A DNA stretch of 25,873 nucleotides from Chloroflexota bacterium (GTDB lineage: Bacteria; Chloroflexota; Dehalococcoidia; Lucifugimonadales; JADFKI01). Below are positions 9,874-25,315 of the stretch, piece by piece. Every line of letters begins with the position of its first letter. The first letter of the stretch is position 1. The stretch covers positions 1 through 25,873 of the forward strand of contig JAGGDZ010000423.1 of assembly GCA_024648655.1 (NCBI GenBank), written 5' to 3'. Position numbers and translations under genes: made by a program. The notes beneath the pieces were generated by a model. That model was not told the DNA's origin and searched no databases. It saw nothing but the letters and a program-made list of their open reading frames with translations.

Positions 9874-10443
9874 ATGAAGACAGCAATAATACTAACTCTG
9901 CTACTCGGACTCGCTGCTGCATTAGCGGCGCAAATTGGCTGTGGAACCGCCCCAGCCGCACAAGCCGATAAGACCGCATCGGTGGCTCGGGCTGAAAAGG
10001 AGGTAGGCTACAAGAAAGGGATGCACATTCCGGAATTCGGGATGAGCTTGCTTGACGGCACAAGGGTTACTTCGGCAAAGCTCGTTGAAGAAGGCAAGCC
10101 GACTTTCATCTATTTCCACGCCACCTGGTGAGGAACCTGCCGCGTCGAGTTGCGGCGCATCAAGGAAGAGATTGGTAGCAGATACAATGACCGGGTAACC
10201 TTTTACATAGTTGGCACCGATCCATCCGAGAGCATCGACATACTCGAAGCGGATAGAAAACGCGAAGGATTACCTTGGCTCACCGCTTACGCGGATGAAG
10301 GCATGTTGGAGAAACTGCAAATCTACACTCAACCATCGAAGGTGGCGCTCAGCGGAAATGGAATAATCACCCACCGATACGGATTCGGCAAAGGAGACTT
10401 CGAGAGTTGGAGCGACCTTTTCGATGACATCGGCGCCAATTAG
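9874..10443 (+). CDS. TlpA/thioredoxin-like redoxin, probable selenoprotein (U86xxC89), exported and possibly lipid-anchored
   Basis: ORFs 9856-10131 and 10150-10443 are in the same frame, separated only by TGA 10129-10131. Read-through gives KPTFIYFHATW-U-GTCRVELRRIKEE...FYIVGTDPSE...QPSKVALSGNG, a continuous thioredoxin fold with TGA at the first Cys of CxxC. Hydrophobic N-terminus ending in QIGC. Confidence 0.88.
10151..10159 (+). promoter_or_regulatory. Candidate SECIS apical hairpin (UGC-GGC-GCA) after the redoxin UGA
   Basis: TGCGGCGCA lies at +20 to +28 from the UGA. It extends to GA(GU bulge)UGC-GGC-GCA-UC (10147-10161). A competing stem GCCGC/GCGGC (10139-10156) is also possible. 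Confidence 0.55.
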
Positions 10444-10547: not shown

Positions 10548-12008
10548 TTACGCCCCCTCCTTGCCCTGGTACACAATGGTGTCAGGCTTGAACACCGCCC
10601 AAGCAAACCAGAAATGACTGCCATGCACAACGGGAGTAAGGCTCTTGCCGGTAAGGGGACCTTCAACCGCGTTGCCTAGAATATCCCAGGTGCTCTCTGT
10701 CTGCTCATCTACAATTTTCCCGTCATTCACACTGAAAGACAGCTTCTGATCGTCAAGATGAGAGTCGAACACCCCCGCGGCGCCGACATCACGAGACTCG
10801 GCAATTGAGCTTCCGTCTAGCGCCGATGTCGTACCGAACTTGTGGAAAACAACGATACTGCGTTCTCCTAAATCATAGTTGATCGCTCCCTCGTCCTGCA
10901 GAATCGTCAATGGGAATGCCACATCCACATCGCCCAAGGTTACGGCTATGACGCGCTCGACAGGGAGTAGTCTTCCGTCGAGATCGCCTCTGAACAGGAA
11001 CGGATTACCATCCGCTGTGTCATAGCCGGCATAAGGATTGCGGCCGTACTGCCGGGCGTATCCGGTGTCTCGCGACAACACCTTACCTTGAGGATGCGCC
11101 TCTGCAAAGTCCGCGAACGACACGATCGATGCGGGCAGATGTTCCAATGTTCTCCCGGCATACTTCCCCACAATCCCCTCTCCTGTAAACTGCTGCCACC
11201 AGGAATGCGACTGACGATCGTACATAATCAGATCGGAGTTGCGAAGATTTCCTGATACTCCAAATTCGAGCAAGTCGCCATCCAAGCGCCTGTCAAAAGC
11301 GATCGCCGAATTGCACAGCGGGCAGAACGTAACTGCGATTGGCACATCGCCGACGTCGTCGTTGACTATCTCGTGCCATGTGAGAATCTGAAGTGGATAG
11401 GCTCGGGAATCGCCATTGACTTGCAGGGCGACCACCGGCTCGACATCCTTGAGCCACACCGATGCTTCGGACGGCGCAATGAATTTCGGCTCGTCGATCG
11501 ACGGGATATTGTCGCGCGGAATCACGAACTTTATCTGGCTATAGGGCACAGTATGCAATCGAAAGTCAGTATCCCATCCGCTAGTGCTGAGTCGCGCGGC
11601 ACTCAACGCCCTCTCATAGTCTGGATCAGGCTCTATCCCGTTTTCCCCGTCACCATTTGCTTCCAGCGTAGAGGTGGCAATAGGCGTTTCGACTGCAATG
11701 GAATTGGTGTCCGTCGGCATCTTTGCCAGCACAGTGGTCGCCACTTCCGCAGGAGTCGGAATGTCTGTTGACATAGATGGTTTCCCTGCGCCTGGAACGG
11801 GTGTAGGCGATACGGACGATGCAGTAGGAGGAATGCCGGACGACTGTATTGCTGTGGACTTTGGCGCCCTGTTCTGTTCCTGCACGACATACGGTTCCTC
11901 CGACGTGCTGCCGCACGCTCCCAGTAATCCTGCAACGAGAAGTAACGCGATAATCGACAAGGTAACCAACTTTGTAGTTGTAAGTCTGTTCCGCAAATGA
12001 TTCTCCAT
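10548..12008 (-). CDS. DUF3179-domain lipoprotein with a Pro/Thr/Ser-rich linker
   Basis: Lipobox LLGAC, low-complexity linker, then DNIPSIDEPKF, AYPLQILTWHEIVND, TFCPLCNSA, FGVSGNLRNSDLIMYDRQSHSWWQQFTG, HFWFAWAVFKP. Confidence 0.88.
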   Translation of the reverse strand: MENHLRNRLTTTKLVTLSIIALLLVAGLLGACGSTSEEPYVVQEQNRAPKSTAIQSSGIPPTASSVSPTPVPGAGKPSMSTDIPTPAEVATTVLAKMPTDTNSIAVETPIATSTLEANGDGENGIEPDPDYERALSAARLSTSGWDTDFRLHTVPYSQIKFVIPRDNIPSIDEPKFIAPSEASVWLKDVEPVVALQVNGDSRAYPLQILTWHEIVNDDVGDVPIAVTFCPLCNSAIAFDRRLDGDLLEFGVSGNLRNSDLIMYDRQSHSWWQQFTGEGIVGKYAGRTLEHLPASIVSFADFAEAHPQGKVLSRDTGYARQYGRNPYAGYDTADGNPFLFRGDLDGRLLPVERVIAVTLGDVDVAFPLTILQDEGAINYDLGERSIVVFHKFGTTSALDGSSIAESRDVGAAGVFDSHLDDQKLSFSVNDGKIVDEQTESTWDILGNAVEGPLTGKSLTPVVHGSHFWFAWAVFKPDTIVYQGKEGA

Positions 12009-16646: not shown

Positions 16647-16726
16647 CTCTCTCTTGCAACGGTGAGTCTGGTATAGTGTGAAATAGAGAAGAGTTCTGGA
16701 ATCGTGAGAACGATGAGGTGGCAGAA

Positions 16727-17572
16727 ATGACGACTCACGGATACACCAACCCCGACATTCTGGTTGAAGGAGACTGGTTAGAGGAAGTAATTGACGATTC
16801 CAATATACGCATTGTCGATTGCGACCCTTACGACGCCTATGGGCGCGCTCATATCAGAAATGCCATAGGGATCCCGGTTCACCATTACATCAAGGAGCCT
16901 GGCTACGACGACTCCCCCCGTGGCTATCCGCTAGTTGCTCCGCCCGACACGATGAAGGAAGTAATGGAGCGTATGGGCATCGGCGACGACAATCTCGTAG
17001 TTGCCTATGACAGCAACGGCGCTCTCTGGTCAACACGACTGTGGTGGGTGCTCAACTATTACGGACACACGAATGTGAAAGTGCTCAACGGCGGCTGGAA
17101 GAAGTGGTATGACGAGGGCCGGCCAACGTCAATAGACATTCCGACCCCCGAAGACGTCACATTTACACCTAAAGCGGACTCCAGCCTTGTATGCACATTA
17201 GGCTATGGAGTGTCCAATGTCGGCAATGAAGATGTGGTCTTCCTTGACGTACGCTCTGACGGCGAGTGGGACGGCAGCAACTCACGGGGCAATACCCGAT
17301 CCGGGCGCATACCGGGCGCGGTTCATCTGGAATGGCTAAACTTCATAACCGACGACAAACATCAGACCATCAAGTCCGCCGATGAACTCCGGGCGATGCT
17401 CGAAGAAGTTGGGGCAACTCCTGACAAGGAAATCGTAACTTATTGACAGGGTGGTATCCGTGCGGCGCACGGAGTTTTCGTACTGAAGCTGCTCGGCTAT
17501 GAGCGCGCGCGAAACTATGATGGGTCAATGGGAGAGTGGGCAAACCGCGAAGATACACCTCTCATTGCATAA
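16727..17572 (+). CDS. Tandem-domain rhodanese/sulfurtransferase (SseA/CysA-like), probable selenoprotein (U240)
   Basis: The ORF track stops at TGA 17444-17446. The frame continues as IVTY-U-QGGIRAAHGVFVLKLLGYERARNYDGSMGEWANREDTPLIA* to TAA 17570-17572, supplying the active-site loop and the C-terminal YDGS.xEW signature. ATG 16727 has a GAGGT RBS. Confidence 0.92.
17457..17473 (+). promoter_or_regulatory. Candidate SECIS hairpin after the sulfurtransferase UGA
   Basis: Perfect 7-bp stem UCCGUGC/GCACGGA with a GGC loop, starting at +11 from the UGA. It contains TGCGGCGCA (17461-17469). Confidence 0.7.
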
Positions 17573-17615
17573 GTTCATACAAAGATTAAATCTGCAAAAT
17601 CTCCCAATAGAATCA

Positions 17616-25141: not shown

Positions 25142-25216
25142 TGGCTCCGCAGGTAGGATTTGAACCTACGACCGATCGGTTAACAGCCGATTGCTCTACC
25201 ACTGAGCTACTGCGGA
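25142..25216 (-). tRNA. tRNA-Asn (GTT), CCA encoded
   Basis: TCCGCAG TA GCTC AGTGGTA GAGC A ATCGG CTGTTAA CCGAT CGGTC GTAGG TTCAAAT CCTAC CTGCGGA G CCA; a complete 75-nt cloverleaf. Confidence 0.98.
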
Positions 25217-25315
25217 GCGTTCCTGTGCGTACCGCAAGTATTCTTTGCGGCGAGGGTACACCAGTTCATATTAACATCAGCGCAACCCACTGGACAAGTA
25301 TTGCTGAGAGGTAAC

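Follow-up and report, generated by a model that had tools for sequence, protein, structure and literature searches.

The window analyzed here is the whole of a 25,873-nucleotide stretch of DNA (GenBank assembly GCA_024648655.1, contig JAGGDZ010000423.1, forward strand), which belongs to an assembly of 2.83 Mb in 533 contigs that is 95.5% complete, and the host organism is a sponge-associated member of the Dehalococcoidia of the SAR202 type. Between an MFS gene and metH lies a plus-strand coding sequence that runs from an ATG at 16727 to a TAA at 17570-72 and contains a single in-frame TGA at 17444-17446. Read-through of the TGA gives a product of 281 residues, in which the TGA is residue 240 and is followed by 41 sense codons before the TAA. 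Homologues align starting at residue 1, in agreement with the ATG at 16727. The gene looks monocistronic, and a 14-bp inverted repeat beyond it may be a terminator. The features of the locus are as follows.

16715 to 16721, plus strand: Shine-Dalgarno-like GAGGTGG, 5 nt upstream of the ATG, read from the sequence
16727 to 17572, plus strand: full coding sequence of the predicted selenoprotein rhodanese, 281 residues, Sec at 240
16739 to 17131, plus strand: N-terminal, catalytically inactive rhodanese domain, about residues 5-135 (Pfam PF00581 and 1UAR alignment)
17219 to 17545, plus strand: C-terminal catalytic rhodanese domain, residues 165-273 (best Pfam stretch)
17444 to 17446, plus strand: predicted UGA codon for Sec at residue 240, aligned with the catalytic Cys of Cys forms and of PDB rhodaneses
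17444 to 17461, plus strand: active-site loop U-Q-G-G-I-R (Cys-form counterpart C-Q-G-G-I-R)
17447 to 17485, plus strand: possible extended SECIS, in which the core is enclosed by two further short helices below it, CAG/CUG and UGG/UCG (MFE structure)
17457 to 17473, plus strand: predicted core bacterial SECIS hairpin, 7-bp stem UCCGUGC/GCACGGA, loop GGC, within codons 244-249 (I-R-A-A-H-G)
17516 to 17539, plus strand: C-terminal rhodanese motif YDGSMGEW, residues 264-271, 3' of the UGA, with conserved residues and freely varying synonymous codons
17615 to 17649, strand not assigned (minus strand in the scan call): 14-bp inverted repeat between the rhodanese gene and metH, putative terminator

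Two rhodanese domains are recognized by Pfam (PF00581, 1.3e-35), and the alignment with the rhodanese of Thermus thermophilus (PDB 1UAR) spans residues 5-279 with an E value of 5.9e-44. Full-length alignments extend to other solved Cys rhodaneses, namely RhdA of A. vinelandii (1E0C), SseA of M. tuberculosis (3HZU) and the bovine enzyme (1RHD), the E values for the four ranging from 5.9e-44 (1UAR) to 1e-28, and it is this full-length correspondence that settles the fold. The features held in common are an inactive N-domain, a catalytic C-domain, a six-residue loop and a C-terminal motif of the YDGSW.EW type. Asp96 (in AYD) occupies the equivalent of the active-site Cys in the N-domain, as in inactive rhodanese domains, and the YD motif is kept across homologues. 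The tandem arrangement with the catalytic residue in the six-residue loop of the C-domain is therefore present, with Sec in place of Cys. The preliminary description had placed the TGA at the catalytic Cys of a two-domain rhodanese, and in the alignments it does coincide precisely with the catalytic Cys in both 1UAR and 1E0C and with the Cys of the Cys-form homologues (HCQGGIRAAH, YCQAGIRAAH). The differences from the solved enzymes lie in the predicted Sec nucleophile, in the loop, which reads QGGIR here and RIAER, QTHHR or RKGVT in them, and in the C-terminal motif, where this clade has M and they have W.

That last difference was also remarked upon in the preliminary description, which set YDGSMGEW against the usual motif. 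The motif is indeed present at residues 264-271, but it is a trait of the clade with no link to Sec: the position is M in 100, F in 9, W in 8 and Y in 2 of the Sec forms, and M is also found in three of eight close Cys forms, so that we rejected M as a Sec signature. Cys156, which is 81% conserved in Sec forms, was likewise rejected as a resolving Cys for Sec, since it is absent from deep-branching Sec forms and present in some Cys forms. Three named identities were considered for the protein and set aside. The 3-mercaptopyruvate sulfurtransferase of the E. coli SseA type (NF008557/PRK11493; PDB 1URH) has the same two-domain architecture and is the best NCBIfam match, but the score is 110.7 bits against a cut-off of 250 bits and the loop is UQGGIR rather than CG[ST]GVT. 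The single-domain CxU protein rhodanese_LYCAU (NF041203, form 3) scores 34.8 bits against a cut-off of 115, and the selenite/tellurite-reduction rhodanese ExtH (NF040901) scores 69.3 bits against a cut-off of 200.

The gene has many close relatives in databases and nearly all of them are annotated as ending at the UGA. Among the best 120 database relatives, 119 are 236-247 residues long, and where a name is given it is "hypothetical protein" or "thiosulfate/3-mercaptopyruvate sulfurtransferase". Public gene calls thus cut the Sec rhodanese short at the UGA, at about 239 residues and without the active site. Such calls would be correct if the TGA were a true stop, arising by nonsense mutation, by sequencing error or in a decaying gene, in which case the 239-residue product would lack the catalytic loop, and the hairpin together with the GUUUUC that follows it does fit a crude terminator pattern. 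The distribution of the TGA argues otherwise. When related genomes were searched in all six frames, 48 of 60 relatives (identity 35-95%) proved to share this single TGA, made up of 21/21 genomes of the same genus, 5/5 other genomes of the same family and 22/34 from other families of the order, and the form also occurs in other classes of the phylum. It is present in all of the best 80 matches among species-representative genomes and in 50/50 distinct coding sequences from relatives, and altogether the TGA stands in the same column in about 130 independent genomes of several phyla. The column alternates with Cys only, the Cys forms are interleaved with the Sec forms, and several of them have the identical loop CQGGIRAAH. 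The survey of TGA against Cys in homologues that had been proposed at the outset therefore bears out the selenoprotein reading, and conservation of the TGA over the roughly 130 genomes excludes two of the refuting conditions named there, namely that the TGA is an error of sequencing or a nonsense mutation peculiar to one strain.

The codons that follow the TGA also argue against termination. The preliminary description counted 41 sense codons after the TGA, including the loop and the C-terminal signature, and these can be read where it had located them. In a set of 50 distinct Sec-form coding sequences, the amino acids of codons 252-281 are kept while synonymous variation is near-maximal, with six codons used for Arg262 and four used about equally for Ala272. 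Protein conservation with free synonymous sites shows that the region is translated, and a product truncated at the TGA would be without both the active-site loop and the end of a fold that aligns to 1UAR through residue 279. As for the terminator-like pattern, in homologues the bases 3' of the hairpin change along with the codons for Val and Phe and form no conserved U-tract. Taken with the conservation of the column, these results make a true stop extremely improbable, and read-through of the UGA is by far the preferred interpretation.

The synonymous freedom seen downstream is lost in the five codons nearest the loop. Codons 244-248 (Ile-Arg-Ala-Ala-His) are nearly frozen, with ATC in 40/44, CGT in 48/50, GCG in 47/48, GCG in 45/45 and CAC in 47/48 sequences, and their normalized codon entropy is 0.31, compared with 0.83 +/- 0.13 in the remainder of the gene. 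These codons hold the perfect hairpin that the preliminary description had noticed at +11, and its claim stands: the hairpin UCCGUGC-GGC-GCACGGA occupies 17457-17473, with the C-G core beginning 11 nt 3' of the TGA and the U-A pair that closes the stem one nucleotide earlier, at 10 nt. Constraints described for bacterial SECIS elements are a loop of 3-9 nt, a stem of 4-16 bp, an MFE of -7.5 kcal/mol or below, and a G in the first two loop positions (G[G/U] at the loop start, flanked by a pair) at 16-37 nt from the UGA (PMC13188914). The rhodanese hairpin lies within all four, with a 3-nt loop, a 7-bp stem, an MFE of -15.2 kcal/mol, and a C-GGC-G context at 17-nt spacing. Just 0.57% of the 87,524 TGA triplets in the genome are followed by a similarly perfect hairpin with a stem of 7 bp or more. 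The element resembles the consensus bacterial SECIS (bSECISearch model; E. coli fdhF type) in being a coding-region hairpin just after the UGA, with the same 17-nt spacing and a small apical loop that opens with G and then G or U, and it differs from the consensus in being very short (7 bp with a triloop), nearly invariant across phyla and without an Rfam model; a scan of 17380-17600 against Rfam found no matching family.

The folding energy of the single sequence is indistinguishable from that of shuffled sequences (z = -0.98 and +0.51), so the weight rests on comparative evidence. Across 45 distinct sequences, 93% of the cells of the core helix are paired, and compensatory changes occur at four of its seven pairs (for example GUUCG...CGAAC and GCG...CGC). 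In 500 shuffles the values observed for the core helix were never reached, and controls in which the helix was slid dropped to 28-57% paired. In the lower helix of the possible extended element 86% of cells are paired and two-sided changes occur at three of six pairs, which is weaker than the core hairpin. The most telling control for selection on the hairpin is provided by the Cys forms that have the same IRAAH peptide, as these use varied codons (CGG GCU GCU CAU; AGA GCA GCA CAU; CGC GCC GCG CAU; and others) and form no hairpin. The RNA also seems to dictate a residue of the protein. Gly249 is 91% conserved in Sec forms and is replaced by Ala, Ser, Thr, Met or Val in Cys forms; it is specific to Sec forms because its GG (17471-17473) pairs with the CC of the Ile244/Arg245 codons (17456-17461), and in this way the predicted SECIS would fix an amino acid. 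In Entotheonella, AUA...GUA (Ile/Val) replaces AUC...GGA, a compensatory change that is visible in the protein. The near invariance of the hairpin sequence across phyla follows from its being locked to the IRAAHG codons.

The same short segment stands out in read data. Contig depth spikes 3- to 18-fold over 17414-17487 in metagenome runs X2, X3, X11 and X12, and many unrelated contigs from other organisms align solely to about 17441-17473, that is, to the UGA and the hairpin. Contigs from RNA libraries span the whole coding sequence; their source is a relative about 90% identical, and DNA carry-over is possible in such libraries.

A read-through product could in principle be made without Sec if the UGA specified a standard residue (Trp, Gly or Cys), either through a reassigned code or by near-cognate read-through. 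Nothing specific favors this, although sequence alone cannot tell read-through from Sec insertion. The TGA is an ordinary stop in this genome, as it ends the adjacent MFS gene (16644-46), and it is the terminal stop of the Sec rhodanese gene itself in several homologues. In addition, the genome has the complete Sec system that the preliminary description had proposed as a check, including a tRNA-Sec that scores 66.4 bits, above the Rfam threshold, and that ARAGORN reports as SeC(tca), together with selA (542 bits), selB (340 bits) and a selD (387 bits) that carries its own TGA at the known Sec/Cys site. With the TGA column alternating with Cys only and a SECIS-like hairpin under selection in the TGA forms only, we consider ordinary decoding to be very unlikely. 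Insertion of Sec remains the favored reading, and it accords with the distribution of selA, which was detected in 46 of 49 genomes with the TGA-form rhodanese, the three exceptions being 74-86% complete; selA was not found in two relatives, G041 and G042, both of which carry a Cys-form rhodanese.

Several other selenium-related sites were seen in the genome. The selD gene (genome G000, contig C349:860-1783, minus strand, locus L020) is itself a selenoprotein gene, with the context SCAG-TGA-ASKF and, about 27 nt 3' of its TGA, a hairpin whose loop is GUA and whose sequence is unlike that of the rhodanese SECIS. Within the window, an AhpC/TSA-like (TlpA-type) exported redoxin at 9874-10443 on the plus strand has an in-frame TGA at 10129 in the context W-U-G-T-C and is probably another selenoprotein; it matches Pfam PF00578 when X stands at the break, and its downstream fold is unlike the rhodanese hairpin. 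Next to it is an uninterrupted open reading frame for a DUF3179 protein (10548-12008, minus strand; PF11376, 1.1e-104), a name that is also present in the selenoprotein table of a 2026 review (PMC13188914). A match to the tRNA-Sec model at 25144-25218 on the minus strand is below threshold (30.5 bits) and is probably an ordinary tRNA gene. A genome-wide motif scan (GCG[GT]CGC after an in-frame TGA) was rejected as a selenoproteome finder, as most of its 20 candidates were spurious and the known sites in the redoxin and selD genes were not among them.

In terms of its distribution, the Sec rhodanese is near-universal in its Dehalococcoidia/SAR202-type order. Sec forms with the same hairpin and 69-76% identity are also found in Ca. 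Entotheonella (L146-L147) and in Ca. Binatia and Thermodesulfobacteriota/Deltaproteobacteria MAGs (L150-L168), and several of the sequences labeled Binatia, Thermodesulfobacteriota or Entotheonella sit on complete chromosomes. In a quick tree the rows from these three groups fall among the Dehalococcoidia rows with support of 88-90, which is not decisive but suggests horizontal transfer among sponge or marine symbionts. A second, divergent clade of Sec rhodaneses (YUGGGARAS/YUQGGGRSA), about 36% identical, is represented by L079 (G009), L080 (G001) and L094 (G352); its own in-frame TGA occupies the equivalent column, the hairpin is a different one, GCGCGGGCGUCGCUCGCG, and the clade was not found in the genome that carries the window. 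That genome also encodes a Cys-type two-domain rhodanese with the loop CRIGERS that is 31-33% identical (C47:7172-7975, plus strand, L084), and hence the Sec enzyme is an addition to, rather than a replacement of, the canonical sulfurtransferase.

Sec-containing proteins of this kind have been reported before from metagenomes, as the preliminary description had stated. Three sequences listed as "Rhodanese-related sulfurtransferase, COG2897" formed one of the 15 selenoprotein families newly described from Sargasso Sea data, with a SECIS predicted for it (Zhang, Fomenko and Gladyshev 2005, PMC1088965), the GOS survey added one further COG2897 Sec rhodanese (PMC2398784), and the 2026 review has an entry "rhodanese-like form 4, PF00581, UxxG" (PMC13188914). 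The present protein has PF00581, one Sec and UxxG (here U-Q-G-G), as form 4 does, and the two-domain, SseA-like alignment is the basis for placing it in COG2897. We infer from COG, domain and motif that it fits the COG2897/form 4 family, of which AACY01016424 and MCY3690685.1 are published representatives. It shares with the Sargasso Sea family the two-domain SseA-type fold and a bacterial SECIS close behind the UGA, and in both cases the origin is marine and homologues with Cys are widespread. The earlier reports comprised three Sargasso Sea sequences and one from GOS, whereas the Sec form described here extends across a whole order and into Binatia, Entotheonella and Thermodesulfobacteriota. 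Single-domain Sec rhodaneses (forms 1-3, COG0607) also have a rhodanese domain with Sec, but the context of their Sec is different.

We propose that the gene very probably encodes a genuine selenoprotein, a two-domain rhodanese-type sulfurtransferase with Sec as its catalytic residue, in view of the Sec/Cys alignment, the Sec machinery, the deep conservation of the UGA, the protein-level selection downstream of it and the selection on the hairpin. During translation the SECIS hairpin at 17457-17473, which lies within the coding sequence immediately 3' of the UGA, would recruit SelB and Sec-tRNA(Sec), and the UGA at 17444-17446 would be read as Sec so that the last 41 residues are made and the catalytic domain is completed. 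The resulting enzyme is predicted to be cytoplasmic. By analogy with rhodanese enzymology, its selenolate would act as the nucleophile on a donor of sulfane sulfur (either thiosulfate or a persulfide), and the Se-S(-) intermediate so formed on the enzyme would pass the sulfur on to a thiophilic acceptor in the double-displacement cycle expected by homology. The loop, with Q at +1 and R at +5 as in the CQTHHR of RhdA, is more suggestive of an enzyme of the thiosulfate or persulfide type than of one of the 3-mercaptopyruvate type. The suggestion in the preliminary description of a selenenyl-sulfide intermediate or selenium-carrier chemistry with altered substrates is plausible. The gene neighborhood gives no inference on substrate or pathway, as the MFS gene upstream and metH downstream are kept solely among close relatives and no neighbor recurs across 20 distant loci.

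A different role for the same Sec residue would be to handle mainly selenium, with Sec carrying a perselenide or selenotrisulfide-type adduct and the enzyme either delivering reduced selenium (e.g., to SelD) or detoxifying selenite. This would alter the substrate and not the recoding mechanism. Cys rhodaneses are able to bind selenium in vitro, the whole lineage uses Sec, and there is the weak, sub-threshold likeness to ExtH (69 bits against the cut-off of 200). There is, however, no conserved linkage between the gene and selD, selA, selB or any other gene, and Cys forms with the identical loop occur in G041 and G042, where selA was not found, which argues for a role independent of selenium metabolism. 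We therefore regard a primary role in selenium handling as unlikely, and transfer of sulfane sulfur by a Sec-dependent rhodanese as the better description of the enzyme.

Since 2005 the family has appeared in published lists, represented by only a handful of sequences. What is added here is that the Sec form is near-universal in one order and present in several phyla, that it is systematically mis-annotated, and the anatomy of its SECIS. The recoding of UGA is missed by standard gene callers, and with 119 of the 120 best database relatives ending at the UGA and losing the active site, both the function and the selenium dependence are under-counted in an abundant lineage of marine organisms and sponge symbionts. 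The SECIS is unusually small, lies inside the codons of the active-site helix and fixes Gly249, and it would therefore be a good model of overlapping RNA and protein constraints. To our knowledge, no Sec rhodanese has been characterized biochemically, and a comparison of Sec and Cys variants would inform on why selenium serves sulfur transfer. A broader and distinctly speculative view, which we think is probably not correct in full, is that the Sec rhodanese belongs to the core selenoenzymes of SAR202-type Dehalococcoidia from marine and sponge-associated settings, that it was passed horizontally with its SECIS to Binatia, Entotheonella and Thermodesulfobacteriota, and that it might be a dedicated selenium/sulfane-sulfur relay with Se-S or Se-Se chemistry beyond that of Cys rhodaneses. 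If that were true, it would be among the most abundant unannotated selenoproteins in the ocean.
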